A stretch of DNA of 64,000 bases, taken from contig CBDUPA010000001.1 in NCBI GenBank assembly GCA_965368975.1, forward strand, positions 736,001-800,000, in the 5' to 3' direction. The notes under the pieces were generated by a model. The model was not told the DNA's origin, ran no database searches, and saw nothing but the letters and a program-made list of their open reading frames with translations. Numbering within the stretch: the first letter of the stretch is position 1; each line of letters begins with the position of its first letter. Below are positions 1 to 16,498 of this stretch, piece after piece. A program made the position numbers and the translations under genes. This stretch comes from an uncultured bacterium. Lineage in GTDB: Bacteria > Acidobacteriota > Thermoanaerobaculia > Multivoradales > JAHZIX01.

Positions 1-1819
1 CTCCTGGGCTGCGCAAGTCGGGCCAGTTGCCGACAGCGGCACTGAACTGTCGATCTTCGTAGGCGAAAGCTCCCCGCGCTCCTTCGAGGAAGCGTATCTC
101 ACCGGTTTCGCGGTAGAGGTGCAGCAGGGCGAGCCCGACACCGGCATTGCCGTGGGAAAGCCCGAGCTGTGCTGGTCCGTCCTCGTCGTGAACGGCTGCA
201 TAGCGGCCAGGCCAGATCCAGCACCCGTCTGCGGTCTCCGCACTCTCGCACAGCTGATCGCCCAGGGCGAGCGCAGCGCGCCGCAGGCGCTTGAAACCAG
301 TGGCGTTATAGAGCTCCAGGAGCATTGGAATCGTGCCGCTGTCTCCGCTGATGAAGTCCACTGGTCGGTCTGCTTCTGGTGCGATGGCCTCTTCGAGGCT
401 AAAAGCATCCAAGTGCTGATCGACCTGTGCAGTGAGGTTGTCGTCCCCGAGTCGGTTTGCACAGTGCCGAGTTGCCCAGAGATGTCCGGCGAGCCCGCCA
501 AACGGACTCAGATCCTGAGCGCCTGGCTCGGCTCGTTCTGCCTGCCAGAGCGTCTGTTGGAGCAGGCCTAGCAAAGTATCTCGAAGCCGTTCCTCGCGGG
601 TCGCCAGGAAGAGTTCCGCAAGGAAGAGCGCAACGCCGGAAGTGCCATCGTGCATTTCGGCCGGAAGTGTGCAGACCGCGGCATATCCTCCCCAACCATC
701 GAGCTTCGAGGGAGAGCAACGGCTGAGCCAATTGCAGCGTCCTTGATACCAGTTGGCTTCTTGGCAAAGGTCGAGACCAATGCCGAGGGCACACTGAGAG
801 AGGCTTGCTGGAGAGGGCTTTCTGTGGGGTTCGTGTCTACGAGATGCGCGGCGGATTCCTGGTAAGGGGTAGCAAGCCTGAGATCGTGGCGCCCGGTACG
901 GCTTTGCCGGGTCCAGGCCGGCAGTGCGGAAAGCGGTATCAACGGTTTCTTCCTTGGGCTGGCCAGTTGTGAAGGCCTCTACGAGAGCTGAGGCGATCAA
1001 CTCGCATCGGTGTTCGCCGAAGCTCTCACCGCCGAGTGGCCCTTCGGCGACAGCCAGTCCGGGGGCCAGGGGCAAGGTGAAGCAGGGAGTTGCTTCATGA
1101 AGGCCATGTTCCACAGCCCGATAAAGTTCAGCGATAGCAAGAGCCACCGTGGCCCAACAGCCGGACTGCAGGTACAGAACGCCGGCATCGGCGCGTCCAT
1201 AAGCCGAGGGATCATCGGGTACCTTCGCCTTGAAGCTAATGCCGAGCGGGTCGAGTGTCTGGCAGAGCTGCTCTAGCCAGGTCGTGGCGCAGTCGGGATT
1301 CAGGTTCCAGTACAGGCGAAGTAGCCAGGGTGATTCTGAACTCGGTGAATCGGTGGTACCCAGAATGGAGTAGAAACCTGGGAGCCTGTTTGGGGCATCG
1401 CCTGGGATTCGAACCGAGATGGCGTCTCCTGGCTTCAGAGTTTCCTCGACATGACGGACATCGCTCAAAGGGCTGTGGAAGCGAATACCACCACGTTCAA
1501 CGATGCACCGCGCATCCGGGAGGATTTCTCTCAGTCTCCATCCGCTCTGCCAGCAGAACCTTCCTTCCTCGACCCGGAGAAGGTGCTGCCGAAAGAGTGC
1601 GGCCGAGTTGATCTCAGCAAGCGGGGCCATGACCGGAAGCTGCCGTGACCGCATGTAGACATGTTGGTAGAGGTGCCGAGTCAGAGATTCGACCAAGGAA
1701 CTGGACGGGGAACGGTGCAAGGTCTCGCCACACAGTCGGTAGCTGTTGCTGTCGATCAGGTCGATGGTTTCGACCGTGGTGCGAAGGTCGGTCGACCACT
1801 GTCGAGGGCCGAGAAACAT
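1..1819 (-). CDS. HopA1-family (LanY-like) lyase fused to LanC-like cyclase; 3' end runs off the window
   Basis: Not in the ORF track. Manual translation from ATG 1819 (just past the upstream kinase stop) stays open to base 1. N-half has HopA1 motifs RLYWNL, FKAKV, YGRADAGVLY, TPCFTLPLAPGLAVAE, ESFGEHRCELIA, GLDPAKPY. C-half has LanC motifs DGTSGVALFLAEL, DFISGDSG, GLSHGNAGVGLALL, NWPDLR. Confidence 0.85.
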   Translation of the reverse strand, partial: MFLGPRQWSTDLRTTVETIDLIDSNSYRLCGETLHRSPSSSLVESLTRHLYQHVYMRSRQLPVMAPLAEINSAALFRQHLLRVEEGRFCWQSGWRLREILPDARCIVERGGIRFHSPLSDVRHVEETLKPGDAISVRIPGDAPNRLPGFYSILGTTDSPSSESPWLLRLYWNLNPDCATTWLEQLCQTLDPLGISFKAKVPDDPSAYGRADAGVLYLQSGCWATVALAIAELYRAVEHGLHEATPCFTLPLAPGLAVAEGPLGGESFGEHRCELIASALVEAFTTGQPKEETVDTAFRTAGLDPAKPYRAPRSQACYPLPGIRRASRRHEPHRKPSPASLSQCALGIGLDLCQEANWYQGRCNWLSRCSPSKLDGWGGYAAVCTLPAEMHDGTSGVALFLAELFLATREERLRDTLLGLLQQTLWQAERAEPGAQDLSPFGGLAGHLWATRHCANRLGDDNLTAQVDQHLDAFSLEEAIAPEADRPVDFISGDSGTIPMLLELYNATGFKRLRRAALALGDQLCESAETADGCWIWPGRYAAVHDEDGPAQLGLSHGNAGVGLALLHLYRETGEIRFLEGARGAFAYEDRQFSAAVGNWPDLRSPG

Positions 1820-1823
1820 GAAG

Positions 1824-2954
1824 TCAGGCAGGGGGCGAGTCCTCCGCTGAGACAGGGGATTCCAGATCGTAGAGGTGGTGCGCCGCGTCGTCGGGATCCT
1901 TTAAGATATTCACTCCTAGCTGCGAGAGGAGAACCATGAGCGTGGTGTAGCCGGAGGCCCTGCGGCCGACCTCCTGTGCTGTTCCGAGTAACTGCACGCC
2001 AGAAAAGGCGACGGACCGCTGCAGGAGGTTTGCCGTTGCCTCCGTGGGTAACAGGGCGGCTTCCAGGTAGGCGTGCCAGAAGCCTTGGATCCATGGACGC
2101 ACCATTCTGAGTGGCATGCGAGCCGCCTGAGAGCGCTCAGCCGACTCGATGTCGGCTTCCATGGGCATGCTGGTGACCCAGAACCGCAAGAACTCGCGAA
2201 GGACGGCTCCGAGATCCCAAGCTGGATCCCCGAAGCGGGCCATCTCCCAATCCACGAGTCGCAGGGGCTGTTCGGTGTCGGCTATCCACAAGACGTTGTC
2301 GGATCGAATATCGCCGTGGATCAGCGTTTCATCCTGCCATCTGGATCGCCAGATCTCGAGAGGCTCCAGTAGCTCCACTTCTCCTTGAATGATGCGCAAC
2401 AAGTCCAACTGAGCTGGTCTCAGCTCGTTGCGGCGGGCCAGGTTTACTTTGGGAAACCAGAAGAGTCCGGGCGCACCCATGGGCAGCTTGGGTACGAAGC
2501 CGCCGAGGTCGAGCCTGCGGCGCCTCAGACCCCGGTGGACTCGGCCCAGGCTGCGGCCCAGGGCCTTGGCGATGGAGAGGCCTTGGGCAGACTCTTCGGT
2601 GCACGCCTGCAACCACGGTCGTGCGTTCCTGATCAGCTCTGCTGCCAGAACAGGATCAGGCGAGTCAGTCTTCTTTATCGCTGGTAACAGGGGCAGGAGG
2701 TCTCGGTGACCTGGAACTGCACCAAGGCATTGGTGCAGCCTTGCCTCGTACGCCAAAGGCGGGCCTTGCTCCGGTCTGCCAGAAGGTTTCTTGATCAGGT
2801 AGCCAGGTTGATTGGGAAACTCGACTCTCAAGCTTTGATTGAGCCGGAGAATCCAGGTGACACCCAGGCCATCGATCAGGTCTTTTTCGCGCAAGAAAGG
2901 ACACAACTCGAGGAGTTCTTTGCCCAGTTCTGACGGAGCTTCGAGGGGCTTCAC
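1824..2954 (-). CDS. APH/phosphotransferase-family kinase (class V lanthipeptide LanK-like)
   Basis: LIHGDIRSDN Brenner motif and LVDWEMARFGDPAWDLG; directly upstream of the HopA1-LanC gene; GTG start. Confidence 0.85.
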   Translation of the reverse strand: MKPLEAPSELGKELLELCPFLREKDLIDGLGVTWILRLNQSLRVEFPNQPGYLIKKPSGRPEQGPPLAYEARLHQCLGAVPGHRDLLPLLPAIKKTDSPDPVLAAELIRNARPWLQACTEESAQGLSIAKALGRSLGRVHRGLRRRRLDLGGFVPKLPMGAPGLFWFPKVNLARRNELRPAQLDLLRIIQGEVELLEPLEIWRSRWQDETLIHGDIRSDNVLWIADTEQPLRLVDWEMARFGDPAWDLGAVLREFLRFWVTSMPMEADIESAERSQAARMPLRMVRPWIQGFWHAYLEAALLPTEATANLLQRSVAFSGVQLLGTAQEVGRRASGYTTLMVLLSQLGVNILKDPDDAAHHLYDLESPVSAEDSPPA

Positions 2955-2975
2955 GCTTGCGGCCCGTTCCAGGTT

Positions 2976-3179
2976 TCAGGTGGCCGGCGAAGACGGCGAG
3001 CACCACTGAGGGTGACTATTTTGAAGCGTGCGTAAGGGGGGAAACCACACACAGTCTGGTGACGGCGAAGATCTGTCGTCTTCGGACTCGACTTCGGCTT
3101 GGGCCAAATAGGTGTCCGTAAGGTGACCCTTCAAGAAGTGGCTCGCGCGAGGGGACTGGCGGTGCTGTTTTTTGCGCAT
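2976..3179 (-). CDS. Putative RiPP (lanthipeptide) precursor peptide, 67 aa
   Basis: Strong RBS (GAGGAG 5 nt before ATG, overlapping the upstream stop). Leader-like N-half with an acidic stretch. C-terminal SSPSPDCVWFPPLRTLQNSHPQWCSPSSPAT has 2 Cys, 7 Ser, 2 Thr. Lies directly before the kinase and HopA1-LanC genes. Confidence 0.7.
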   Translation of the reverse strand: MRKKQHRQSPRASHFLKGHLTDTYLAQAEVESEDDRSSPSPDCVWFPPLRTLQNSHPQWCSPSSPAT

Positions 3180-3188
3180 ACGTTCTCC

Positions 3189-6100
3189 TCATAGGTTTCT
3201 GCATCCAACTGCTGGTGATCCCGCCGAGCGTACATATGTGGCGAGCTCATGATCGTCTACCAGAGTTTGGAACTGTTCGTCGGACCATTCGGCGTCGAGA
3301 AGCCGATGCACAATGGGTAACGCTTCTTCAATTCGCCCCAGCTCCAGCAGGGACTGAGCTCGAGTATCGAGAATCCGGCACTTCTCGGCTGGCAGTGCTT
3401 CCGCTAACTCGAGTGCTTTCTGCCAGCTGTTGCGAGCCAGATCCTCTTCGTCGCGTTGCTTCTGAATGCGACCAAGTTCGAGGTAGGTTCGAGCTGTCGC
3501 TTCCGTGTTTTGTGGATTCTCAGGCATATCCTGGAGAAGACGCAGGACCGTTCTTCCTTCTAGGAGAGCCAAATCCCATTTGCTCGCACTCTTATAGTGA
3601 TCCTGGAGAGCCGCATGCGACACAACTAGCCATAGTTGCAGGTGGGTGTAGGTCGGATGTTCATCTGCCACTTGTTTGAAGGTTTCACTGGCGCGGTGCA
3701 GGTAGGCCAGAGCTATCTCGGGCTGGTCCTCAAGTGCCGTGGCAAGGCCAACCCAGGTCTGTGCCAACGCTACAGGCCAAGTGTCCCGCAATGGGTCGAG
3801 TACGATCAGTTGTTGATAGAGGCGCTCGGCCTCTCGTAGTCTGTGGAGCGCGCTCGGCTTGTCAGCTGTAGCCAGATAGAGGTTTCCGAGATCGAGTTCG
3901 GTTATGGCCTGTGCTCTGAGCCAGGTGAGCTGTGTTGGATTGCCTTCCATCAGATTTCCGAGCCTTGTTCGTAACCTTTCAAGAGCACGTATTCCTTGTT
4001 GGAAATCGGACCGAGCCTGGTGGAGTGTTCCGAATAGTTGCAAGGTATCAACAAGCAGAGTTTCGGTTCGCCAGTTCGAAGTTGGCTCGAGTACAAGGTC
4101 TTCTGCAATCTGGAGCGCCTCCTCAGCATACTCCAAGCCCTGCTCGAAGTCTCCGATTCGGCAGTACAAGTGAGCGGTCTCCTGAAGATTCTGGCCTAGC
4201 AACAGGCGCCACTCGGTCGGCGCATCCTCCCTTCCTGCCAGTTGCCGCGCCAGCAGGCGAGAAGAGGCGAGACTGTCGAGTCCTTCCTGGGTTTTTTCCT
4301 GTCGAATCAGAACGGACGCAAGTCTAAGTCTTGCCCGGCTCAGGGCTCCTTGGACTCGGGCTTGGCTCGGATCTTTCTCATGTAGGGCCGCTAGGATGCG
4401 GACGGCTTTCTCATGTGCAGCTTGAGCCTGGTTGACATCCAGCCGCTCTTCTAAGACCCATCCGATGTTGAGATACGTGAGGGCGCGGCGAAGACTGTCC
4501 GCGGAGCTGAAGTCCGCCTGGGTTTGCGAGAAATGCTCCAAAGCTCTTTGAGCCACTTGATCCAGCAGGTCCAGGCGCCCCAGAGGTTCCAGATTTTCCT
4601 GCAGGTCGAAGAGCATGAAGTCGATCAACCCTTCCGCCTGCCGCCGCTGCTCTCCTTCGCGCTCCTTTGCCTGCATGGCCTGGAGCGCGAGGACAACGAC
4701 CACCACCAGGAAGATCGACGCCGTGACGGCAACTGCCTTGAGTCGTCGTCGGCGCCGGACCGCTTGCTGCGCAGCCCGCCTCGCTGCCCTTTCCGTTGCC
4801 CGTTCCGCCCGCCGTTGTTCCAGAGTGTACAGCTTCTCGGCAGCAATCAAGCCACTCGCCGGCCGCCGCTCCGGCCGGCCATCGACGAGCGTGCCAATGT
4901 CCTCGACCAGCAACTCCTCCTCGACATCCCGCTCCCAGCCGGAGGCCAAGGGCCGCTCGAAATCAGCCGCGACCAGTTGATAGAGCAGCACACCGAACGA
5001 GTAGAGATCCGCCTGGATCGTGGCCGGTCGGCCGGCAAGTAGCTCCGGTGCCATGTAGCCGAAGGTTCCCGCTCCGGAGTCCGTGGTCGGGGTTGCCGTC
5101 GCCGTGAAGCCGAGGGCAGTGAAATCTTGCCCTGCCAGCTGTTCTCGATCCGTCAGCAGTCCGATGCCAAAGTCGGTCAGGCGCGCGCGCGGGCGGCCAT
5201 CGCGGTCGCTGGTGATCAAGACGTTCTCGGGCTTGATGTCCTTGTGCAGCACGCCGACCGAGTGCGCCGCCGCCAGCGCCTCGGCGACTTCGGCGGCCAG
5301 TTCCAGGCGCACCTCGAGCGGTACTTGACTCAGGCCTCCTTGCTGCTCGGCCCAGCGCACCAGGCTGCCGCCCTCGGTGTACTCGGCCTCGACGAAGAAG
5401 GGAGCGCTGTCGAAATTCCAGTCCAGGATGCGCGCGATGTCGTCGCGCTGGCCCAGGGCTTCCTTGAGCAGGCGGAAGAGCGTCACCTCGCGCTTGAGCG
5501 CGCGCAGGCGCTCGGCCTCGAAGCAGAACTTGAAGACGCGCGCCTCGCCGGCTTTGTGGCGGGCCAGCCAGACCTCGCCGAAGCCACCTTCGCCGACGCG
5601 CTCTTCCAGCTTCCAGTGCGGTCGACCGGGAATGGGTTGACCACCGGCGGGGCGCCAGCCGAGCATGCGTTCTTCGCTGACGGACAGGGCCCGCCGGGCA
5701 TCGGTGCGTTCGGAGGGAGGTCGTAGGGCCGACAGCCCGTCGAGACCGACCTCGAACACGTCCAGAGGGGTTTCTCGGCCCCTGAGCAGGTAGCTGCCGT
5801 GCGCCAGCCAGCGAAGACTGCTCTTGCCGCCGTCTTCCGTGCCGTCGCGGGAGTCCGGATGGGCACGGCGCGCGAGGTCGAAGGCGGTACGGCTGAGCAG
5901 GATCTGGTTGCCAGCGGCGAGGTGTAAGAGCTGGCAGGCGGTTCCCTTCTCGCTACCTTCGACTTCCACCTCCGGTGCACCTTGCTGCCTCTCGGCAGAG
6001 GAGGGACGGTGCACCAGAACTTCCGCCGTGTGGATGGCGGCGCGGATCGGCAACTCGACCGCGAAGGTGGAGGCCACTTCGAGGATGGCCCGCTGGGTGG

Positions 6101-7361
6101 ACAAGGCGCAGGCGACAGCATCGGCGGGGCGTTCGAAGACGGCGAGCAGGCTGTCGGCTTTCTCGGCCACCGAGCCGCCGTACAGGGACACCAGGTCGCG
6201 CAGGCGCCGGTCGTACCGGCTCAGGAGGCTGGCCGCGGTGCCGTCGCCGTGGCGCTGGGGCAGGGCGGCGCGGTGGAGCAGTTCGACGTGGAGCAAGGTG
6301 CGAACGGCTGGAGTGCCGGTAGGAGGGGAGGGGAACCATTCGCCGGTCGCCTGCTCGCTCGTGGCGGGGTTGCCGTCGAGTTCGCCGTGGCTGGCGGAAG
6401 CCCGCCGCGTACCTGACGGCCGTGGCAGGGCAGAGGTGTCGGGCTGGAGGAGCACGCCAGGGCCAGTGCCGGCATCCGTGCCAGGGCCAGGGCCGCTTCG
6501 CAGTCGTTCCAGCGAAGCGGCCACCAGGCTGGCGTTGGCGGGGCGCTGGTGCGGGTCCTTGGCCAGCAGGGCCTCGACTAGCTGCAGCAGGTCGGCTGGC
6601 AGCCGCGGCTGCAATTGAGCTAGGGAAGTCGGAGGTTCTGCAGTGATGCGGCACAGGGTGTCGAGCAAGTTCGTCCCCTGGAAGGGGGGGCGACCGCTGA
6701 GCATCTGGTAGAGCAGGCTGCCGAGGGCGAAGAGGTCCGATCGGTGGTCGAGCGGACGGCCGCTGGCCTGCTCGGGAGACATTGCATGGACGGTGCCGAC
6801 CAGGGCTCCCGCTTCGGTCAGGGTCTGGGAGCCGATAGGGTCCTGGAGGAGCGGGTCTTGGGACGACGTGTCCCTGCGCCAGAGGCAGTGCACCAGGCCG
6901 AAGTCGAGGATCTTGGCATGTCCGGCGGCGGTCAGGCGGACGTTCTCGGGCTTCAGGTCTCGGTGGACGAAGCCGCGAGCGTGCGCCTCGGCCAGACCTT
7001 GGGCGATCTCCGTACCGAGACGTAACGTCTGGTCGAGGTCGAGGGGGCCGTCTGTCAGCAGATCGGCCAGGCTCGGCCCCTCGACGTACTCCATGACCAG
7101 GCAATCGCCGTCGTCGGTGGAAACGATGTCGAAGATCTGGACGATCGCCGGATGGTTGAGGCCCGCCACGGCCCGGGCTTCGCGCCGGAAGCGCTCACGT
7201 CGCCGCGGATCGACTTCCAGGTCTTCGCGGATGCGCTTGATGGCGACTTTCCGGTGCAGGCGCTCATCGCGCGCCAGGAAGACCTCTCCCATCCCTCCGA
7301 CGCCGAGCCTGGACTCGACGCGGTAGGAACCAAAGCTGAGTTCGACTGATGCTGTGGGCAT
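3189..7361 (-). CDS. Membrane receptor: two Hanks-type Ser/Thr kinase domains flanking a degenerate class III nucleotidyl cyclase-like domain, TM helix, C-terminal TPR region
   Basis: Kinase 1: GVGGMGEV, AIK, HRDLKPEN, DFG. Middle: TLLHVEL...EKADSLLAVF...AVACAL...IRAAIHTAEV, cyclase-like. Kinase 2: GEGGFGEVW, HKDIKPEN, DFG, APE. TM: AVAVTASIFLVVVVVLAL. Helical TPR-like C-terminus. Confidence 0.88.
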   Translation of the reverse strand: MPTASVELSFGSYRVESRLGVGGMGEVFLARDERLHRKVAIKRIREDLEVDPRRRERFRREARAVAGLNHPAIVQIFDIVSTDDGDCLVMEYVEGPSLADLLTDGPLDLDQTLRLGTEIAQGLAEAHARGFVHRDLKPENVRLTAAGHAKILDFGLVHCLWRRDTSSQDPLLQDPIGSQTLTEAGALVGTVHAMSPEQASGRPLDHRSDLFALGSLLYQMLSGRPPFQGTNLLDTLCRITAEPPTSLAQLQPRLPADLLQLVEALLAKDPHQRPANASLVAASLERLRSGPGPGTDAGTGPGVLLQPDTSALPRPSGTRRASASHGELDGNPATSEQATGEWFPSPPTGTPAVRTLLHVELLHRAALPQRHGDGTAASLLSRYDRRLRDLVSLYGGSVAEKADSLLAVFERPADAVACALSTQRAILEVASTFAVELPIRAAIHTAEVLVHRPSSAERQQGAPEVEVEGSEKGTACQLLHLAAGNQILLSRTAFDLARRAHPDSRDGTEDGGKSSLRWLAHGSYLLRGRETPLDVFEVGLDGLSALRPPSERTDARRALSVSEERMLGWRPAGGQPIPGRPHWKLEERVGEGGFGEVWLARHKAGEARVFKFCFEAERLRALKREVTLFRLLKEALGQRDDIARILDWNFDSAPFFVEAEYTEGGSLVRWAEQQGGLSQVPLEVRLELAAEVAEALAAAHSVGVLHKDIKPENVLITSDRDGRPRARLTDFGIGLLTDREQLAGQDFTALGFTATATPTTDSGAGTFGYMAPELLAGRPATIQADLYSFGVLLYQLVAADFERPLASGWERDVEEELLVEDIGTLVDGRPERRPASGLIAAEKLYTLEQRRAERATERAARRAAQQAVRRRRRLKAVAVTASIFLVVVVVLALQAMQAKEREGEQRRQAEGLIDFMLFDLQENLEPLGRLDLLDQVAQRALEHFSQTQADFSSADSLRRALTYLNIGWVLEERLDVNQAQAAHEKAVRILAALHEKDPSQARVQGALSRARLRLASVLIRQEKTQEGLDSLASSRLLARQLAGREDAPTEWRLLLGQNLQETAHLYCRIGDFEQGLEYAEEALQIAEDLVLEPTSNWRTETLLVDTLQLFGTLHQARSDFQQGIRALERLRTRLGNLMEGNPTQLTWLRAQAITELDLGNLYLATADKPSALHRLREAERLYQQLIVLDPLRDTWPVALAQTWVGLATALEDQPEIALAYLHRASETFKQVADEHPTYTHLQLWLVVSHAALQDHYKSASKWDLALLEGRTVLRLLQDMPENPQNTEATARTYLELGRIQKQRDEEDLARNSWQKALELAEALPAEKCRILDTRAQSLLELGRIEEALPIVHRLLDAEWSDEQFQTLVDDHELATYVRSAGSPAVGCRNL

Positions 7362-7391
7362 AGGTCTCCAGGTAAGGGGACTGAGAGAAGG

Positions 7392-8048
7392 TCAACTCGT
7401 GACTTGCTTGTTTCTTTCCGGCTTGCCTTTCTCCAGAGTGTGCAGCAGCCAGAGACGCGCGCTGCGCCACTCTCGCTTGACAGTGCGCGGTGAGATCTCG
7501 AGGGTATGTGCGGTCTCTTCGACGGTGAGACCAGCAAAGTAGCGCAGTTCGACGATACGGCTCTGCCGAGGAGCCAGTTGTGTCAGCTCGTGCAGGGCTC
7601 GGTCGAGATCGAGCAAGTCGACGGTGCGGTGCCGATGGCCCCCTGCGCTCCAAGCCTCATCGATCGGAATGATGGTGCAGTCGCCGCCATGCCGCATCGC
7701 TTGGTTGCGGCGGGCGTGGTTGATCAGGAGCCGCCGCATGGTGGTGCCCATGTAGGCGAAGAATTGCGCTCGGCACTGCCAGCTCAGCTCGCGCCCCCCC
7801 GTCAAGCGCAGATACGCCTCGTTCACCAGGGCGGTCGGCTGTAGCGTGTGGCCCCGACGCTGACGCTGTAGGTGGAAGGCGGCGAGTTGACGCAGGTCGT
7901 TGAGCACCAGTGGAAATACGTGCGCCAAGGCAGAAGCGTCCCCCCGAGCCCAGGCGTCGAGAAGCTGGGTGACCTCTCCGGACGGTGGCTCGGTGAAGGC
8001 GCGGCCTTCTTCGTTCGGCGGAGACTCCTGAGGAATGCTACCTACCAT
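7392..8048 (-). CDS. ECF sigma factor of the Ser/Thr-kinase-associated type (TIGR02999-like)
   Basis: EVTQLLDAW.RGD..AL, HTLQPTALVNEAYLRL, IVELRYFAGLTVEETA..LEISPRTVKREW; immediately upstream of a kinase gene. Confidence 0.92.
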   Translation of the reverse strand: MVGSIPQESPPNEEGRAFTEPPSGEVTQLLDAWARGDASALAHVFPLVLNDLRQLAAFHLQRQRRGHTLQPTALVNEAYLRLTGGRELSWQCRAQFFAYMGTTMRRLLINHARRNQAMRHGGDCTIIPIDEAWSAGGHRHRTVDLLDLDRALHELTQLAPRQSRIVELRYFAGLTVEETAHTLEISPRTVKREWRSARLWLLHTLEKGKPERNKQVTS

Positions 8049-8154
8049 TGTCCTCTCCTATCGTCCCTTGAGTAGATGTCGCTGCCGGGTGAAGCGCAGT
8101 AGGGCAGAGGACTGGACCATTGTCTTCCCTAGCGGCAAGGAAACTGAGGCGTAG

Positions 8155-10062
8155 CTACTCGTCGAGCTGATCCTTGATACCGAGCCTGCGGATCATGCGG
8201 TGCAGCGAATTGACGTGGATGCCCAGCCGGTCGGCGGTGACGCCGTAGTCGCCGCCGGCTGCGCGGTAGGCGTCGAGGATCAGCTTGCGCTTGAACTCGA
8301 CCAGGGCGGCCTGGAACTCGGACGGCACCTCGGCCGTGCTCTCGCGCACTTCTTCCGGCAGATCCTCGGGTTCGACGACGTCGGTTTCGCCGAGCACCAA
8401 GGCGCGCTCGATGACGTTGCCCAGCTCGCGCACGTTGCCGGGCCAGTCGTAGGCTTGCAGGCAGCGCTCTGCGGCCTGCGAGACGGTGACACCGAGGCGG
8501 CCGAGGCGACGGCCCTGGACGGCCAGGAAGTGACTGCACAGGAGCGGGATGTCGTCGCGACGCTGGCGCAGGGGTGGTGGTTCCAGGGTGATCACCTTGA
8601 GGCGGTAGTAGAGGTCCTCGCGGAACTCGCCGGCACGGATGGCTGCTTCCAGGTCGCGGTTGGTGGCGGCGACGATGCGCACGTCGACGTCGATCGGCCG
8701 CGTCCCACCGACGCGCTCGAATTGCCGCTCCTGCACCACGCGCAGCAGCTTGGCCTGGATCGGCGGTGGAATCTCACCCACCTCGTCGAGAAAGAGAGTG
8801 CCGCCGCCGGCGGTCTCGAACTTGCCGGGCTTGCGCGCCACGGCGCCGGTGAAGGCACCTTTCTCGTGCCCGAAGAGTTCGCTTTCGAGCAGCGTCTCAG
8901 ACAGGGTGGCGCAGTTCACCGCCACGAAAGGACCGGCGGAGCGCGCGCTCGAACGGTGAATGGCCTGGGCGGTGAGTTCCTTGCCGGTCCCGCTCTCGCC
9001 GCGAAGCAACACGGTGGTGTCGGAGCGCGCGACCTTGCCGATGAGGTCGAGCAGCCGCCGCATGGCGGCGCTTGCGCCGATCAAGTCGTGCTGCAGCTGC
9101 TGCGCTTGCAGGCGCCGGTTCTCGGCTTCCAGCCGCTGTAGCTGCAGGCTGTTGGCGAGCGCCAGGGAGGCCACGGCTGACAAACCCTCGAGCAGGTCGA
9201 GGTGGTGAGCGTCGAAGGCACCGGCGACGTGAGTCTCGCCGGTCAGCACGGCCAGCACGGACTCGCCCGCGGGATCGAGGAGGGGAGCCGCGACCCGTGT
9301 GCCGAGGGTGGAGTCGGTGAGTTGCGTGCAGCGCTCGTGCACGGCTTTTTCGACGATTGTCTCCACGAGGGTCCGATTTGCCGCGATTCCATCGGCGGCG
9401 ATTCCATCCCGGCTGGCTGGGCCGGGCTCCACCTGCCGCGAACGCTGCGCCAGCACTTGCGGCTGCTCGTCACCAGGCTGCCACCAGAGCACCTGGGTGC
9501 GCTGTGCGGGTAGGGCCTCGAGCAGTGCGGCGACCACGCGCTCGCCGCACTGCTCCGGCAGCAGTGGCCCCTGCAGTTCGGTGCTCCAGCGCAGCAGGGT
9601 CTGCAGGTCGCGGGCGATCCGCGCCTGGACGGGGAGTTCGGCGTCCAGGTGAGCCGGATCGAGCAGCAAGATCTCGGTGGCTCTGCGCGCGAAGGTACTG
9701 CGGCCGGTGGTCCTTCTGCTGCCGGCAAGTCTTGCGCTCTCGCGTGGCTCGATGCCGCGCGTGTCGGTATCGTTGAGCAGGAAGAGCAAGACACTGCCGC
9801 CGAGAGTCAGCAGGTCGCTGTGTACCAGCTGGTGTTGTCGCACCGGCCGGCCATTGACGAAGACCCCGTGCCGGCTTCCGAGGTCCTGGAGGGTATAGCC
9901 GCCATCGCTGCCCGGCAGCAACTCGCAGTGTCGGCGCGAGATCTCCAGGCTCTCCAGGCGCAAATCACAGTCAGCACTGCGACCGATCGTGAACGGCTTC
10001 GTGAGCAGCGGAAAGGTCTGACCCGCGGCGGGGCCACTGATAGCTACCAGGCGTGGTTTCAA
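8155..10062 (-). CDS. Sigma-54-dependent activator with FHA and GAF-like domains
   Basis: FHA motifs [17 protein letters not shown]; AAA+ motifs [37 protein letters not shown]; C-terminal HTH; TTG start. Confidence 0.92.
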
Positions 10063-10071
10063 CGTGGGCGG

Positions 10072-10080
10072 ATTCTACCA
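10072..10080 (-). promoter_or_regulatory. Putative extended -10 promoter (TGGTAGAAT)
   Basis: TGnTAGAAT about 10 nt upstream of the TTG start of the sigma-54 activator; implies a near-leaderless transcript. Confidence 0.45.
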
Positions 10081-10150
10081 TGCGGTGCGCTCCTGGCTGG
10101 GACTGCTGAGTTCCCCGCAGCGGTAGCGGATGGCCTGGTTCTCGTTGGGC

Positions 10151-12394
10151 TTACTCCTGTTCGGCCTCTTCCAACTGGACCCGTGCCCGACCGACCCGCA
10201 CCAGCTCGCGGCCGGTGCGGATCAGGAAGGTGCCGGGAAGGGCTGCCACGCCGTAGACGGTGTCGTCGGTTGGCAGCAGATTCTCAGCCACGACGGTGAC
10301 CTCGTCGCCATCGTGCCGCAGCACGGTGGTGGCGCCCTTGCGGGTGAAGAAGTACACGCGGTCGCCAGCGGCAACAGGGGAGGCCCAGCAGGCCTCGGCC
10401 AGCCGGTGGCGCCAGCGCAACGCGCCGGTGTCTCGATCGGCGCAGCTGACGACGCCGGCCTTGTTGACGAAGAGAACGCAGTCGCCGTGCACCAGCGGTG
10501 AGCCGAAGCCCGAAGTGATGCCGTCGCCGCGCCACTGGATGCGTGAGTCATCGTTCGCTGCCTCTGGTAGCGTGCCGCGCCGCAGCGCGAAGTTGTGGGC
10601 CGCGCTGCTGCTGGCGACGATCACGAGCTTGCCGTCGATGGTCGCGGACGCCGCCGTGTTGCCTTCCAGACCGTCGAGGCGCCAGCGCACGTCGCCCGTT
10701 GTCGCATCGACGGCTTCGACATGGCCGTTGGCGGAGGAAAGCAGTTCCGCCCCGGTTGGCCCCGGGGCGACGGCCGGCGTCGTCCAGGCGACGCGCGCTG
10801 GCCGCTCGACCTTCCAGTGCGTCGCGCCGGTCTGCCGATCGAGCGCGATCAAGTAGGACGGACCTTCGTGGGTTGCCTGGACGATCACGGACGTTCCTGC
10901 CAGGACAGGCGAGCTGGCGATGCCGTGGTTGCCCTGGAACGGTCCGTAGTCGTCGGTCAGCGAGCGCCGCCACAGGCTCTCGCCCTGGTGGTCGACGGCG
11001 ATGAGGTCGCCGCTCTCCCAGAAAGCATAGACGCGCCGCGCGTCGACCACCGGCGTCGGCGCCGCGCGCGACACCATGTCGCTGGACTGGATCTTCTGGC
11101 TCGCCGCGTAGCGGTACTGCCAGTTCACGTCGCCGGTGCTCAGGTCCAGGCAGGTCAGGACCAGCGTTTCCTTGAACTCGCCCTCGACGCTGGTCACAAA
11201 CACCTGGTCCCCCCACACGACCGGGCTCGACTGGCCGTACCCGGGCAACTCGACTTGCCAGGCCAGCTCGCTCGGCGACCAGCTGACGGGCATGTCGGCG
11301 GAGTGGGCGTGGCTGTTGCCGAAGCCGCGAAAGCCGGGCCAAGCGGCGACGGCGTCTTTACCCAGGGTGCTCAGCGGCACGACCTCGATGTCGGCCCGGT
11401 GCCCCCCGCGGTGGGCACCCCCGACGAAGAGTACCTGGTTGCCGTCGACCAGCAGGCGGTGGAAGAAACGCGGATGTTCCAGGGTGTGGACGCCGGCATG
11501 CCAGGTACCCGTCGGGTCGAGCACGTGGACATTGCCGTCGGCGGTCGAGGTGTAGAGGTGACTGCCGGCGCCGAAGGCGGAAGCACCGAAACCCTTGAGC
11601 CCTTCCGTGGCCGGCAAGTCCGGGCCCTGCGACCAGCTTCCGGCGTCAGGGTCGAAGACATCGACCCGGCGGCTGGTGCCGTCGTCGTGCAGGCCTCCGA
11701 TAGCGTACAGACGCCCGGCCGCCGAGGCGGCTGCCAGAGCGCGGCGCTGGAACGGCTGCTCGAGACGTTCCCAGGCCGGTTCGGCAGCGCTCGGGTCGAG
11801 GCGCCACAGCTCGTCGTGCCACGCGGGATCGAGCTCGGCTCCGCGCAGCTGCCAGCCGCCGACGACGTAGATGTGACCGTCGAGCACCACGGCGTCGTGT
11901 GACGAGCGCGGCGCGGGCAGCGGCGGCAGGGCATGCCAGGTGCCGGCTGCGTCGCCGTTGGCAGTCTCGCCTGCTGGCCGGAAGCACTGGACATCGTCGA
12001 CCGAGAACAGGTCTTCGTCTTCCTCTTGACCGTTGCGTGCGGTCATGCCGCCGAGCCGGCACACTGCGTCGCTGACCGCGACCAGCGCCAGCCCTTGCAG
12101 GCCGGGTACCGGGCCGAGATCCTGCCAGCCGCCGTCGGGGCGTCGCAGGTCGAGGCGCCGGAAGTGGTGGGACAGGTTGTTGGTCGAGTGCTGGTGGGAG
12201 CGGCCGACGTGGCCTCCATAGACGTAGAGGTGATCCCCGAGGACGGCGGCGCCGAAACTGGCGACCGCTTCGGGCATCTCGGGCAGTGGCATCTCGGGCA
12301 GGGGCGTATCCGCCCTCGCTGGCACAGCTCCGAAGGCGAGCAGGCAGCAGGCGAGCAGCAGAGAGACGGTGGTATTGCGTAGGTTCATCTGCAT
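10151..12394 (-). CDS. Secreted Kelch-repeat plus PQQ-like (BamB-type) double beta-propeller protein
   Basis: Signal peptide; Kelch repeats (YVYGG, YVVGGW, YAIGG); then WPGFRG...W...PGYGQSSPVVWG and repeated SSPV/W motifs of PQQ-like propellers. Confidence 0.82.
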   Translation of the reverse strand: MQMNLRNTTVSLLLACCLLAFGAVPARADTPLPEMPLPEMPEAVASFGAAVLGDHLYVYGGHVGRSHQHSTNNLSHHFRRLDLRRPDGGWQDLGPVPGLQGLALVAVSDAVCRLGGMTARNGQEEDEDLFSVDDVQCFRPAGETANGDAAGTWHALPPLPAPRSSHDAVVLDGHIYVVGGWQLRGAELDPAWHDELWRLDPSAAEPAWERLEQPFQRRALAAASAAGRLYAIGGLHDDGTSRRVDVFDPDAGSWSQGPDLPATEGLKGFGASAFGAGSHLYTSTADGNVHVLDPTGTWHAGVHTLEHPRFFHRLLVDGNQVLFVGGAHRGGHRADIEVVPLSTLGKDAVAAWPGFRGFGNSHAHSADMPVSWSPSELAWQVELPGYGQSSPVVWGDQVFVTSVEGEFKETLVLTCLDLSTGDVNWQYRYAASQKIQSSDMVSRAAPTPVVDARRVYAFWESGDLIAVDHQGESLWRRSLTDDYGPFQGNHGIASSPVLAGTSVIVQATHEGPSYLIALDRQTGATHWKVERPARVAWTTPAVAPGPTGAELLSSANGHVEAVDATTGDVRWRLDGLEGNTAASATIDGKLVIVASSSAAHNFALRRGTLPEAANDDSRIQWRGDGITSGFGSPLVHGDCVLFVNKAGVVSCADRDTGALRWRHRLAEACWASPVAAGDRVYFFTRKGATTVLRHDGDEVTVVAENLLPTDDTVYGVAALPGTFLIRTGRELVRVGRARVQLEEAEQE

Positions 12395-12398
12395 CTCC

Positions 12399-14687
12399 TC
12401 AGAAGTGCACGCGCAGCTGCGCGCCGAAGTTGCGGCCGGGGCTGGTGTAGCGGTCGAGCGTCGCGGAGGTCTGCGCCTGGCCGCGCACGTACGGCCACTG
12501 CCAGTAGGCCTCGTCCGTCAGGTTCCAGCCGCTGAGCTGGAGTGACAGGCGGTCGTGAAGCGCGATCCACAGTGCCAGGTCGACGACTTCGTAGCCTGGG
12601 GCGCGGAATTGCGTCGAGTCGGTGGGCAGGTCGCTGGCAGCCTTGGCCGCGACCTGCGTCGCCGTCAGCTCGGCGCCCCAGCGCTCGCGGGCGGCGTAGC
12701 GCAGGCCGAGCACCAGGCGCGGCGGCGCGATCGATGTGAGGGGTTGGTCCGCCAGCTCGTCGTCACCTTCGATCCAGGTGTAAGCCGCGCGCAGATTCCA
12801 GCCGCTGCCCAGGTCTGTCTCGGCGGCGAGTTCGAGGCCGCGGATGCGCACGTCCTGCAGGTTCTGCGGCTGGAACTCGACCAGGAAGAGCCGTGGGTTG
12901 AAGCCCAGGAAGACGGTCTCGATGAAGTCCTGATAGCGGTTGTCGAAGCTGGTCAGGCTGAAGCTGCCGCGCTGGCCACCTGCTTTGCCGTCCTTGTTGC
13001 TGATGGTGAACGTTGCGCGCACGCCTAGCTCGTAGTTGTCGCTGGTTTCGGGCCGCAGGTCCGGGTTGGGCAGGGTGTGGTAGCCACCGGCCTGGTTGGT
13101 GAAGCCGTTGTTGATCGAGCTCATTGGCGGTGCTCGGAATCCGCGCGCGACCTGGCCGAAGACGGAAACTTCGTCACTCAGCGCCAGCACCGCGCCGAGA
13201 CGCGGAGACACCGCTTCCTCGATGTAGTCCACCGGTGCGAGTGTGCCCGGGTTGCCGGAAAGATAGATCGAGTCCTGCTGGTCGGCGTCTAGATTGTAGC
13301 GGTCGAGACGCAGGCCGGGGACCAGCTTCAGGCGGCCGTTCCACAGGTCGAACTCACCCTGGACGAAGACGCCCAGCTCCTCGACCTCCGAGCGCGGGAA
13401 GTACTTGCTCGGCAGCGCCAGCGACTGCGCGATCGCCTCTCCGCTGGCGAGCAGGAACTCGCTGCGGTCGCGCAACTGGTCGAAGCTGTCGCGCTGCAGG
13501 CTGAGGCCGTAGGTCAGCACTTGCCGGCCGTCGCCGCACAGGTCTTTGCGCAGGTCGATCTCGAGCCCCAGAGTTTCCTGCTCGAAGGTCAGCAAGCCTT
13601 CGCGGTGTAGGCCGGCCGTGACGCCAGCGATGTCACGCTCACGCAGCTCGTCGGTGACCTGCCCGGTGTTGCTCTGCTGGGTGTAGGCGCGCCAGAGCAG
13701 CGAATCGGCCAGCGTCGTCTGCAGCACCAAGCTGTGCTCTACGCTGCCGCGCCAGCGCTCCTGCCGGTCCTCGGCGGCGAGAGCGAGGATGGTGTCCGGC
13801 TGGGCGGGCCCCTGCGCCGGCGCCAGGCTGCTGAGCACGTCCGTGTCGGTGCTGCCCTCGAACCATTCGAGAGCGAATTCGAGCTGGTTGCTGGGGCTCA
13901 GGCTGTGGCCCAGCTTGGCCAGGAGGTTGTCTTGCTGGCGGTCGATCGGATTGGGACGTGTGCGGGTGAAGTCCGAGTTGCCGATGTCGCCCTGGTTGTC
14001 CTGCTCGTGGCCGTCACGGTGACTGTAGAACAGCAGACCTTGCCAGGTGTCATGCCCAAACGCGATGGTGGCGGCTTCGGAGATCTCGTCGGCGCGGCCG
14101 TCGTAGCCACCGCGCAGGCCCAGGTACAAGGGGCCGCCGTCGAGATAGGAGCGCGGTGAGCGGGTCGTCAGGCTGACGACGCCGCCGAGCGCGTCGCTGC
14201 CGTAGAGCGCCGAGCCGGCACTGCGCACGATCTCGACTCGCGACAGTGTGTCGAGGTCGAGGGTGTACTGCGGGACACCGAACGGGCCGAAGTCGAATTG
14301 CTCGGCCGTCGGGATGCCGTCGATGCGTGTCTGCACTCGATTGCCGCCAATGCCGCGGATGTTGAAGCCGTTGCTACCGAGGCGGGTGAGATCACCGTCG
14401 ACATAGATGCCCGGCAGATAGCGCACCAGGTCGCTGAGCTGCCTGTGGCCCAGTTCTTCGATCTCAGCGGCTCCCACCACGTCGACCTGTCCCGGTGTGT
14501 CCTTGACCGCGCGTTCCGAGCGCGTCGCTGTTACAGTGATGGTCTCAAGTAGCGTGATATCGTCCCAATTCTGGGAAGGCGGTTGCGGGGTTGCCGCGGT
14601 CGAAGGGACGGTCAAGCCGAGACCCAAGGCCACGGCCAATGTCCACCGCGTGAGTCCGCCCGGACTCACATTCATGGCACAGTTCAT
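12399..14687 (-). CDS. TonB-dependent outer-membrane receptor, heme/hemoglobin/transferrin type
   Basis: TonB box ETITVTATR; plug motifs NIRGIGGNRV..IDG and SALYGSDALGGVV; FRAP and NPDL motifs; C-terminal Phe. Start moved to ATG 14687 (RBS GGAGGA). Confidence 0.9.
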   Translation of the reverse strand: MNCAMNVSPGGLTRWTLAVALGLGLTVPSTAATPQPPSQNWDDITLLETITVTATRSERAVKDTPGQVDVVGAAEIEELGHRQLSDLVRYLPGIYVDGDLTRLGSNGFNIRGIGGNRVQTRIDGIPTAEQFDFGPFGVPQYTLDLDTLSRVEIVRSAGSALYGSDALGGVVSLTTRSPRSYLDGGPLYLGLRGGYDGRADEISEAATIAFGHDTWQGLLFYSHRDGHEQDNQGDIGNSDFTRTRPNPIDRQQDNLLAKLGHSLSPSNQLEFALEWFEGSTDTDVLSSLAPAQGPAQPDTILALAAEDRQERWRGSVEHSLVLQTTLADSLLWRAYTQQSNTGQVTDELRERDIAGVTAGLHREGLLTFEQETLGLEIDLRKDLCGDGRQVLTYGLSLQRDSFDQLRDRSEFLLASGEAIAQSLALPSKYFPRSEVEELGVFVQGEFDLWNGRLKLVPGLRLDRYNLDADQQDSIYLSGNPGTLAPVDYIEEAVSPRLGAVLALSDEVSVFGQVARGFRAPPMSSINNGFTNQAGGYHTLPNPDLRPETSDNYELGVRATFTISNKDGKAGGQRGSFSLTSFDNRYQDFIETVFLGFNPRLFLVEFQPQNLQDVRIRGLELAAETDLGSGWNLRAAYTWIEGDDELADQPLTSIAPPRLVLGLRYAARERWGAELTATQVAAKAASDLPTDSTQFRAPGYEVVDLALWIALHDRLSLQLSGWNLTDEAYWQWPYVRGQAQTSATLDRYTSPGRNFGAQLRVHF

Positions 14688-14857
14688 GGATGCTTCCTCC
14701 ATGGATCGCCGCGCCGGTTGCCGCCGGCACGGTGGTTGTTTCCTAGGGGCGATGGTCCGCCAGCTTTCGCGAGTCGACGGGCCATCGCCTGTTTCCGTTT
14801 GAGTCGGCCCTAGCTTGTCTCTCCGGAACTCCCAGCAGAGAGGTGACGAGAGGTTGT

Positions 14858-14872
14858 TGAGACAATGTCTCA
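14858..14872. promoter_or_regulatory. Fur-box-like 7-1-7 operator TGAGACA-A-TGTCTCA
   Basis: Perfect inverted repeat resembling the Fur 7-1-7 motif, upstream of a heme-type TonB receptor. Confidence 0.55.
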
Positions 14873-14887
14873 TTATGGCCTGGGCAA

Positions 14888-15011: not shown

Positions 15012-16451
15012 GTGCCTAGGAAGACCGCGCCCCTGACTCCCGAGCTGCGGGCCAACCACCGCTCGCTGTCCTCGACTTCCGAACACTTCGTCGACTTCAT
15101 CGTCGAACAGCCGGCGTGGCATCGCATCATCACGGACATCTTCGATGTCGTGCCGGAACTCGAGCCGCACGAGGTGCAGACTTGGCCGACGTTCGTGGAT
15201 CGCGAGGTCTACGACGGGATGGGGCGCGTGGCAGTGCGCATCTTCGACCTGGTCAAGAGCCTGCCCGAGCGCCTGTGTGGCAGCGATCCGACGAAGGTCG
15301 CCGAGTTGTGGCGGCTACCGAGCGTCGAGGCGGCCGAGAAGATCCTGCAGGAGCCGGTGGGCTGGAGCGCGGCGACGGCACGGGTTGACTTCATGCTAGG
15401 TCCAGACGGCTGGCAAGCCCTGGAGCTGAACGTCTCGCCGTCGCTCGGTGGCGTCCAGCTGTACGCCATTTGGGACCTGTGCCTGGAGCAGCCGACGATC
15501 CAGGAATTCGTGGCCCAAGAGGTAGCGCGCGGCGGCGGCGAGCTCGAGGCGGTGCAGACGTTGGTCGAATTCCAGCAGTACCTGGTGCGCGACACGCTCG
15601 ACTTCCTGCAGGACGTGGGCGGTTCTGGCTCGCCGAGGGACGTCAACATGGGCTGGTGCGTGCCGGAGTCGGTGGACATCGAGGCGGCGGAAGAAAACCT
15701 GAATCACTTCTACGCCGAGCTGCTGGAGACCGTCGACCCAGCGCTGTCGGGCAAGTACGTCCTGTTCACGGACTACGCGCAGCTGGAGGAGAAGGACGAC
15801 GGTCTTTACTGCCGGGGCCAGCGCCTGCACATGATGCAGTGCTTCCCGAGCTACGATCTACCGGACGTGCTCTACCGGGCCTTCAAGGCGCGCAAGCTGA
15901 GCCTCTATGGCGCACCGATGCAGAACCTGCTCAGCGATCGTCGTTGCCTGTGCTTGTTGTCCGAGCACGCGTCGAATCGCGAACTGTTCAGCGCCGAAGA
16001 GCGGGCGTTCATCCAGCGTCACGTGCCGTGGACGCGGCTGGTGCGACCGGGGCGGACACGCTGGCATGGACGCTTCGCGCGCACCGAGAAGCTGCTTCTC
16101 GAGCAGCGCGACAAACTGCTGGTCAAGCCCTGCCTGGCGCACGGCGGCGACGGCGTCACCGCGGGCTTCGCACGCACGGACCGTCAGTGGCAGCGGTTGA
16201 TCGAGCACGCGCTGGCAGCACCGGACGACGCCACGCAGGAGATGATCGTGCAGGAGTTCGTGCCCTCGAAGCTCTACCTGTACCAGGTCGGCGAGCAAGG
16301 CTTTGCGCCGCACCGCATGGTGTGGGGCTGCTTCGTCTTCGGCGAGCAACCGGCGGGGCCCTACGTGCGCGTGATTCCGGAGTCCTTGCACCAGGGTGTG
16401 GTCAACGTGCAGAAGGGGGCCTTGCAGTCGCCGGTGGTGCTGGTCGGCTGA
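15012..16451 (+). CDS. Circularly permuted ATP-grasp (glutathionylspermidine synthase-like) ligase, paralog 1
   Basis: ARVDF, LELNV.PSLGG, VKPCLAHGGDGV, IVQEFV, GCFVFG, VVNVQKGA; GTG start after AGGAG. Confidence 0.72.
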   Translation: MPRKTAPLTPELRANHRSLSSTSEHFVDFIVEQPAWHRIITDIFDVVPELEPHEVQTWPTFVDREVYDGMGRVAVRIFDLVKSLPERLCGSDPTKVAELWRLPSVEAAEKILQEPVGWSAATARVDFMLGPDGWQALELNVSPSLGGVQLYAIWDLCLEQPTIQEFVAQEVARGGGELEAVQTLVEFQQYLVRDTLDFLQDVGGSGSPRDVNMGWCVPESVDIEAAEENLNHFYAELLETVDPALSGKYVLFTDYAQLEEKDDGLYCRGQRLHMMQCFPSYDLPDVLYRAFKARKLSLYGAPMQNLLSDRRCLCLLSEHASNRELFSAEERAFIQRHVPWTRLVRPGRTRWHGRFARTEKLLLEQRDKLLVKPCLAHGGDGVTAGFARTDRQWQRLIEHALAAPDDATQEMIVQEFVPSKLYLYQVGEQGFAPHRMVWGCFVFGEQPAGPYVRVIPESLHQGVVNVQKGALQSPVVLVG

Positions 16452-16498
16452 ACTCAGCGTTCGATTTTGATTTGATCCAAGGAGGAGGAACTGTACCC

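Follow-up and report, generated by a model that had tools for sequence, protein, structure and literature searches.

The stretch of DNA analysed here, referred to as the window, comprises 64,000 nucleotides of an acidobacterial genome (G000:C1:736001-800000), and positions 1 to 10062 carry a string of minus-strand genes in which an extracytoplasmic function (ECF) sigma factor of the ECF43 type and a membrane receptor kinase are followed at short distance by genes for a class Vb lanthipeptide. We consider it very probable that this receptor kinase/sigma module is functionally coupled to the lanthipeptide genes. The sequence-only reading of this DNA had suggested that the sigma/kinase genes and the genes for a peptide made by ribosomes and modified after translation (RiPP) might form one functional unit; that view is supported by linkage in four sequences, by the composition and divergence that the parts share, and by the gene order of a Planctomycetaceae locus (L003). 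Coordinates are those of the window unless prefixed, L001 being a larger genome stretch around the cassette. The genes of the string are:

8155-10062, minus strand: FHA-GAF-sigma54 enhancer-binding activator (635 aa; gap of 106 nt to the ECF sigma gene)
7392-8048, minus strand: ECF43-type sigma factor (218 aa; gap of 30 nt to the kinase gene)
3189-7361, minus strand: receptor kinase (1390 aa; gap of 9 nt to the precursor gene)
2976-3179, minus strand: lanthipeptide precursor (67 aa; ATG start with GAGGAG 6 nt upstream; gap of 21 nt to the LanK gene)
1824-2954, minus strand: LanK (376 aa; GTG start; gap of 4 nt to the LanY-LanC gene)
1-1819, minus strand: LanY-LanC fusion, open at the window start (760 aa when complete)

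The coordinates give gaps of exactly 30, 9, 21 and 4 nt between five co-oriented genes, the values listed in the sequence-only reading, and profile matches agree with its domain assignments (sigma factor, kinase with a transmembrane segment and tetratricopeptide repeats (TPR), LanK-like and LanY-LanC proteins). Two features go beyond it: the receptor is a double kinase, its two kinase domains being separated by a cyclase-homology domain, and the activator heads the co-directional string. The complete LanY-LanC gene occupies L001:11537-13819, of which 463 nt (the last 154 codons) precede window base 1. Terminator-like sites between positions 9400 and 20000 of L001 numbered five, all on the plus strand and none on the minus strand, with 7.4 expected by chance. 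The sigma-54 promoter consensus was matched 33 times in the window (chance expectation, 31) and in none of the intergenic gaps of the unit, no sigma-70-like promoters were found where 0.9 were expected, and an Rfam scan of positions 1-10300 matched no family.

By their domain content, the peptide genes make up a lanthipeptide cassette of class Vb, a new member of a kind already described. In the available parts of PMC11186320, the class Vb enzyme set consists of LanK, LanY and a dedicated LanC, with LanC separating Vb from Va; the chemistry of LanK and LanY is taken as laid out in the available parts of PMC9486802. LanK matches PF01636 (APH; E = 2.3e-13, 50.9 bits, cut-off 23.2) and carries the motifs HGDIRSDN (HGD...N) and DWE; against the LxmK model NF038156 it scores 90.6 bits (E = 1e-25), below the equivalog cut-off of 315. 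The 376-aa, GTG-started LanK is probably correct, because homologues of 363-378 aa align over 87-93% of its length; the entry for this protein in the protein collection (P0104) has 262 aa, 70% of the open reading frame (ORF). Searched as a whole gene, the LanY-LanC fusion matches PF17914 (HopA1) in its LanY half (residues 143-309; E = 2.2e-38, 132 bits, cut-off 22.7) and PF05147 in its LanC half (residues 386-755; E = 4.6e-52, 177 bits), and the portion within the window yields HopA1 (E = 1.6e-38) plus a LANC_like match. The CHG zinc motifs of the LanC half (C626/H627 and C679/H680) are nearly invariant in an alignment of 23 sequences, and the fusion itself is common, both Pfam domains being present in 53 of 91 database hits. 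The LanK-like and LanY-LanC genes named in the sequence-only reading are therefore confirmed, and its term RiPP genes is better replaced by class Vb lanthipeptide genes.

The precursor carries HFLKGHLTDTYL in its leader, and its last 32 residues include nine Ser/Thr, two Cys and seven Pro. A search of this protein against 1.84 billion representatives returned one weak match, to a 1171-aa protein and with no aligned stretch, so that no relative of the peptide was detectable in that collection. The leader motif is shared by small Cys-bearing ORFs adjoining the cassette at L007, L015, L020, L044, L059 and L079; the scan for it gave ten rows, of which three on the other strand look like chance. 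No close relative of the cassette was found in 40 related genomes, the best full-length match having 35% identity.

Several further observations concern cassettes and precursors elsewhere. The same genome contains a second LanK-like gene beside a HopA1-LanC gene (G000:C11:154103-156448), with native GC content at third codon positions (GC3, 0.85-0.87); the LanC domain there is without its middle part (model positions 11-117 and 377-423 only), and the pair has no kinase or ECF match within 8 kb. In three loci from Thermoanaerobaculia/Acidobacteriota, the gene preceding LanK (L022:6971-8809, L025:5915-8668 and L046:7093-8886) encodes homologous proteins of 600-917 aa that match no Pfam family and bear the leader motif (ARFLQGQVQQDF) about 100 residues in, and the corresponding gene of L033 (7642-8673) encodes a 343-aa protein of Cys/Thr-rich repeats. 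These proteins may be giant or multi-core lanthipeptide precursors. Candidates for precursors with repeated cores lie at L050:8403-8723, L057:8338-8616, L014:11-142 and L044:1375-1602; among them, the core CCWIAVATTSC is present in four copies, PATQKTCTQTCGC in two and SARGCGG in four, and the L044 candidate has a tail of twelve Asp.

The sigma factor matches PF07638 (E = 6.6e-52, 176.5 bits, cut-off 21.1) and TIGR02999 (193.9 bits, cut-off 126.15), and its region 2.2 is uncharged and carries HTLQPTALVNEAY, which holds the Thr of QPTA, a QTTA-type motif. Its gene stands 30 nt ahead of that of a Hanks-type kinase with no anti-sigma gene between them. The expectation that this ECF type is partnered with a Ser/Thr kinase rather than an anti-sigma factor thus holds at this locus, where the family match, the Thr and the adjoining kinase are all present, and the sigma/kinase pair is a variant of the ECF43 pairs. 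As far as the available parts of PMC13147305 describe them, ECF43 sigma factors are activated through phosphorylation at the Thr of the QTTA-type motif by a partner Hanks kinase, a membrane protein with a periplasmic TPR domain whose ligand is unknown.

The receptor kinase is composed of the following parts:

4527-7361, minus strand: resident cytoplasmic and membrane kinase part (residues 1-945; GC3 0.75-0.86; 86.6% identity to P0093)
about 6522-7325, minus strand: Hanks kinase 1 (Pkinase)
about 5685-6314, minus strand: cyclase-homology domain (TIGR04510 match, residues 350-559)
about 4857-5609, minus strand: Hanks kinase 2 (Pkinase)
4662-4748, minus strand: membrane span (residues 872-900; the sole hydrophobic span, with RRRRR on its N side)
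3189-4526, minus strand: extracytoplasmic TPR domain (residues 946-1390; TPR_12, E = 2.4e-13; GC3 0.56; hypervariable)

The Gly loop, Lys, DFG and either HRD or HKD are retained by both Hanks domains. Because there is one span and it is preceded by RRRRR, the TPR part is expected to be extracytoplasmic; a conserved 45-residue juxtamembrane stretch separates it from the span. Among annotated families the protein resembles TIGR03903 (E = 1.1e-62, 212.3 bits) and TIGR04510 (E = 1.3e-39, 136.4 bits, covering the N-terminal part of the model) but, with cut-offs of 705.75 and 400 respectively, is by these scores a member of neither. The structure predicted for the TPR domain from its single sequence is an all-helical repeat solenoid (mean predicted local distance difference test score, pLDDT, 69.7), whose best TM-scores are to LGN/Pins (0.45-0.46) and RapI (0.42); these are peptide-holding proteins, and such matches are generic for TPR solenoids. 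No relative of the domain above about 26% identity was found among 400 genomes of the phylum.

The evidence that ties the sensor to the peptide genes comes from a compositional boundary inside the kinase gene. Measured in 150-codon windows, GC3 runs at 0.75-0.86 up to residue 900 and is 0.56 from residue 976 on; the precursor, LanK and LanY-LanC genes have 0.66-0.70, the sigma gene 0.74 and the activator gene 0.85, and the genome median is 0.79 (all ORFs of at least 400 aa, spurious ones included). A fall in GC3 of at least 0.25 from kinase part to tail occurs in 2 of the 63 long Hanks kinases of the genome, this one and C2:41722-44262. Sequence divergence changes at the same place: P0093, the nearest relative (1355 aa), is 86.6% identical to the window kinase over residues 1-945 (95.1% over 560-945) and 33.3% identical over residues 946-1390 in a global alignment. 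Three other sequences could be compared with the window part by part:

8515-nt Logan contig (kinase P0093, best LanK relative P0105 and best LanY-LanC relative P0001): kinase body 87%, TPR 37%, LanK 45%, LanY-LanC 53%
8223-nt NCBI contig (1411-aa kinase P0094 and LanK P0107): kinase body 52%, TPR 26%, LanK 36%, LanY-LanC not seen
L044: kinase body off the contig, TPR 24%, LanK 31%, LanY-LanC 37%

Between the window and the P0093 relative, the segment from the TPR domain to LanY-LanC has diverged nearly as far as it has between much more distant organisms, with the kinase body near-identical. Judged by composition and divergence, the TPR domain, precursor, LanK and LanY-LanC form one block of foreign composition, with GC3 of 0.56-0.70 against about 0.81, that is joined in frame to a resident kinase at residues 945/946, about 45 residues past the membrane span, and that has been inherited and has diverged as one piece. 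The simplest reading would be that the whole block was replaced by recombination, with a crossover just past the membrane span. The junction is also present in one DNA sequencing run, probably of the same organism and perhaps of the source sample itself, in which short contigs are identical to the window and one of them covers the junction (4390-4688).

Compositional breaks of this kind were seen in other receptors as well. The ECF43/serine-threonine kinase (STK) pair at G000:C2:40928-44262 has GC3 of 0.82 in its kinase part and 0.56 in its tail; its next gene is convergent and no RiPP genes are seen there. Loss of GC3 in the C-terminal TPR part was likewise found, in metagenome sequences and related genomes, at L139:408-4565, L117:7633-10842 and L120:7702-11922, the L139 kinase passing from 0.91 to 0.52-0.59 on a contig that stops about 100 nt past the gene. 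The sensor tails of such kinases may be swapped often.

Linkage of a kinase-TPR gene to the cassette was found in four separate sequences: the window, the two database contigs listed above, in which co-location is inferred, and L044, a contig of a Thermoanaerobaculia metagenome-assembled genome that preserves the gene order of the window from the last part of a TPR protein through a small ORF bearing the leader motif to LanK and LanY-LanC. The TPR domains of the window, P0093, P0094 and L044 are mutually homologous (E = 1e-17 to 1e-32), and each of the four TPR domains known in this subtype seems to lie beside the cassette or LanK. Kinases of the same family with other neighbours provide the comparison: the cassette stood beside none of them at 21 loci from related genomes or at 80 metagenome loci (retrieved with a conserved kinase segment as query; best match 68% identity), and the next gene was convergent in most family-kinase loci.

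Starting instead from the enzymes, alignment of LanY-LanC located 80 genome loci, 61 of which hold HopA1 and LanC genes. Hanks-kinase ORFs, detected by single-sequence phmmer at E = 1e-3 in the same way in the inner and outer zones, numbered 11 in 7 of these 61 loci; all lay within 3 kb of the cassette, and the outer zone, with 62.7% of the flank bases, contained none. Of the seven loci, three come from Gemmatimonadales and may not be independent. An ECF43 sigma gene was found in 2 of the 80 loci. L003 shows the full order, from an ECF43 sigma carrying QPTA through a membrane-spanning kinase with a WD40 domain and a small Cys-rich ORF to LanK and LanY-LanC; in L057, from Undibacterium, a repeat precursor, LanK, LanY and LanC are surrounded by three STK-TPR genes that run in one direction; and in L063 the genes for LanC, ECF43 and STK follow one another with overlapping stops and starts. 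Related pairings extend to Planctomycetota, Gemmatimonadota and Betaproteobacteria. The sequence-only reading had named, as an outcome that would speak against it, homologous RiPP clusters that are never linked to ECF/kinase pairs; such clusters are linked in some loci, as the exception. Chance adjacency in the window is unlikely, because the genome has 19 strong PF07638 copies per 7.1 Mb and the linkage recurs elsewhere.

The history of the regulatory genes can be followed in G002, a genome of the same family. The activator (Pfam FHA, 6.1e-19; Sigma54_activat, 1.7e-72; weak GAF; start at TTG 10062 or later at 9963) shares 48% identity with its G002 counterpart, which lies directly upstream of the orthologous kinase; the backbone common to both genomes comprises the activator (48%), the double kinase (41%), a plus-strand gene (26%), an ECF sigma (62%) and an STK (48%). 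The last two correspond to a second pair adjacent to the window, not to the sigma and kinase of the window. Since FHA/sigma54 activators adjoin family kinases in G002 and also in L118 and L120, the activator is the older partner of the kinase, and since the G002 pair is without that ECF gene, the sigma factor is a later local addition to an activator-kinase pair. The closest relative of the sigma factor is a neighbouring ECF paralogue (C1:733513, 56% identity). Travel of the sigma gene with the cassette was considered and rejected, the ECFs of L063 and L003 being 44% and 37% identical to it against 56% for the paralogue.

Within the coupled unit, we tentatively favour the reading that the mature peptide is the ligand of the TPR domain and closes an autoinducing loop, a proposal that we place ahead of one-way control while granting it somewhat short of an even chance. 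Ser/Thr residues in the core of the precursor would be phosphorylated by LanK and would lose the phosphate through the HopA1-like half of LanY-LanC, and the LanC half would close thioether rings onto the two Cys. After removal of its leader, the peptide would reach the periplasm or the medium and bind the concave face of the cognate TPR domain, thereby activating the kinase, which would phosphorylate the sigma factor at the QPTA Thr and possibly engage the FHA activator; the phosphorylated sigma factor would then drive the operon. Specificity of such a loop would be set by the matched sensor-peptide-enzyme block, in the manner of a pherotype. Three considerations favour this reading: the inherited unit has its boundary where the sensor domain begins rather than where the kinase gene stops, the TPR subtype has been observed solely in company with the cassette, and sensors that read the product of their own lanthipeptide cluster are known from nisin, subtilin and planosporicin. 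The most specific version, a recombining pherotype-like receptor-ligand cassette in which a class Vb lanthipeptide serves as a kin or quorum signal, a TPR-Hanks kinase as its reader and ECF43 as the phospho-switch, is a more doubtful proposal.

A quite possible alternative is control in one direction, in which the TPR domain senses another envelope or environmental cue (a competitor, a predator or surface damage) and an antimicrobial or protective lanthipeptide is the output and not the ligand. The operon structure and the conserved linkage fit this explanation equally well, and it has a precedent in PknS/EcfK, which, in the available parts of PMC13147305, responds to an outside cue, contact with amoebae, and drives an effector system. 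A number of findings weigh against the peptide as ligand. Low-GC3 sensor domains without visible RiPP genes exist (C2:41722-44262, L139, L117 and L120), so sensor swapping needs no peptide partner; and with the architecture in place, one recombination with a single crossover within the conserved part of the kinase would be enough to move the TPR domain and the RiPP genes together, by physical linkage alone. Transporter and peptidase domains, and with them an exporter or a leader protease, were not detected in the co-directional string or on its immediate flanks, the nearest MacB/FtsX permease lying about 4.4 kb past the cassette on the opposite strand and beyond another gene pair. No Hanks kinase is nearby in 54 of the 61 cassette loci, and the activator-kinase pair of G002 has neither an ECF gene before the kinase nor RiPP genes. 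Finally, co-location of P0093, P0105 and P0001, and likewise of P0094 and P0107, is taken from equal contig sizes. What one-way control leaves unexplained is the position of the foreign-block boundary, which falls where the TPR domain begins instead of where the kinase gene stops, and the association of the TPR subtype with the cassette in four of four cases, when family kinases with other tails are without it.

It is improbable, in our view, that the TPR domain lies on the path of the peptide without being its receptor, as a periplasmic chaperone, a dock for processing or export, or a trap for self-protection, with the kinase secondary at most. TPR solenoids of the LGN/Rap type, to which the fold matches point, do hold extended peptides, the domain is always next to the precursor, and the unit has no recognisable exporter, protease or immunity gene, so that some such function is missing. 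The domain is, however, fused to a double kinase in which HRD/HKD, DFG and the VAIK-type Lys look intact in all three visible N-terminal parts, which makes a pure scaffold role unlikely, and the literature searches gave no example of such a role. Least probable of all is adjacency without a functional link, whereby a mobile RiPP cassette landed behind one of many kinases and the close spacing reflects compaction: the genome does offer 63 long Hanks kinases and 19 strong ECF43-type sigma factors, the GC3 of the cassette is foreign, and five same-family genomes hold no close cassette relative, with the G002 backbone lacking the cassette, but the foreign block begins in frame inside the kinase gene, the kinase-TPR/cassette linkage recurs in three further sequences at 24-53% identity, and kinases in other phyla are concentrated within 3 kb of cassettes.

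Directly upstream of the activator, on the same strand, the co-directional string has two further members, a pair of genes 4 nt apart:

10151-14873, minus strand: TonB-dependent receptor (824 aa) and Kelch/PQQ beta-propeller protein (747 aa)

A comparison with 34 kb of G002 showed no counterpart of this pair. Past LanY-LanC come a convergent 352-aa ORF with a signal-peptide-like start and then a second pair, about 1.4 kb past the cassette and on its strand, of an ECF43 sigma (197 aa) and an STK-TPR kinase (790 aa; L001:7112-10097, equivalent to G000:C1:731112-734097). The convergent ORF was considered as a member of the cassette and rejected, being part of the syntenic backbone. Another ORF, the Arg/Ala-rich L044:5060-7456, appears to be spurious, as it matches no Pfam family and the genome of the window has no relative of it. 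An 829-aa ORF on the plus strand (15470-17959) has no Pfam match and a GC3 of 0.66, low for the genome.

Each component resembles a described system and departs from it in defined ways. The class Vb pathway (parent mSmoA), as given in the available parts of PMC11186320, shares with the window an APH-fold kinase, a HopA1-like lyase, a zinc LanC and a short Ser/Thr/Cys-rich precursor; here, in contrast, LanY is fused to LanC in a single polypeptide, the string also includes a receptor kinase and a sigma factor, and the cassette belongs to a soil or sediment bacterium of the Gram-negative type. EcfK-PknS of Xanthomonas citri and EcfP of Vibrio parahaemolyticus (PMC13147305, available parts) likewise have a PF07638/TIGR02999 sigma factor with a QxTA Thr and no anti-sigma gene between, and ECF43/Hanks pairs share the adjoining membrane Hanks kinase with periplasmic TPR. 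The window differs from the described ECF43 pairs in that its receptor has a cyclase-homology domain as well as two kinase domains, in that the older syntenic partner is an FHA-sigma54 activator, and in that a RiPP cassette lies 9 nt downstream. TIGR03903 (TOMM system kinase/cyclase fusion) and TIGR04510 (putative peptide modification system cyclase), whose NCBI names derive from RiPP neighbourhoods, combine a Hanks kinase, a cyclase-homology domain and a long repeat tail as here, whereas the scores of the window kinase lie far below their cut-offs and the type of RiPP differs; a literature search found no functional studies of either family.

Two groups of signalling systems offer parallels to the proposed loop. 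In the nisin (NisRK), subtilin (SpaRK) and planosporicin/microbisporicin (ECF sigma/anti-sigma) clusters, a cluster-encoded sensor and a dedicated transcription factor answer the cluster's own lanthipeptide. The sensor in those circuits is a histidine kinase or an anti-sigma factor, whereas here it would be a Hanks kinase that phosphorylates a sigma factor, and autoinduction here is inferred. In agr of Staphylococcus and comQXP of Bacillus, the sensor domain, the signal precursor and the modifying enzyme make up a hypervariable block and the kinase body is conserved. As in those systems, precursor, modifying enzyme, membrane sensor kinase and regulator occupy one locus in the window, and the contrast between an 87% identical body and 37-53% identical sensor, LanK and LanY-LanC may follow the same pattern, in a comparison of one close pair and two distant ones that does not include the precursors. 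The type of kinase, the chemistry of the peptide and the output regulator differ from agr and comQXP, and no dedicated export or processing gene was found in the string or next to it.

The sequence-only reading knew of no described example of this coupling, and we found none in print, either of the coupling or of the mosaic block of sensor and RiPP genes (subscription papers and supplements lay outside the search). No title among the ECF43-kinase papers found linked these pairs to RiPPs, the only one of the papers listed that combined lanthipeptides with ECF sigma factors was a cell-wall review, and the names LanYC and LanY-LanC were absent from the literature searched. ECF43 sigma/Hanks kinase pairs are common in soil phyla, and the signal sensed by the studied pair is still unknown according to the available parts of PMC13147305. 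A sensor domain that travels with genes for a modified peptide provides a concrete ligand candidate. If the proposal is true, the peptide would be the first defined ligand of an ECF43-linked receptor kinase, and the locus would represent a peptide-signalling architecture, distinct from two-component and RRNPP systems, in a soil phylum of the Gram-negative type. The findings further suggest that class Vb cassettes of Gram-negative phyla are often under the control of receptor kinases, which bears on the waking of silent clusters, and that some lanthipeptides may be signals rather than antibiotics.

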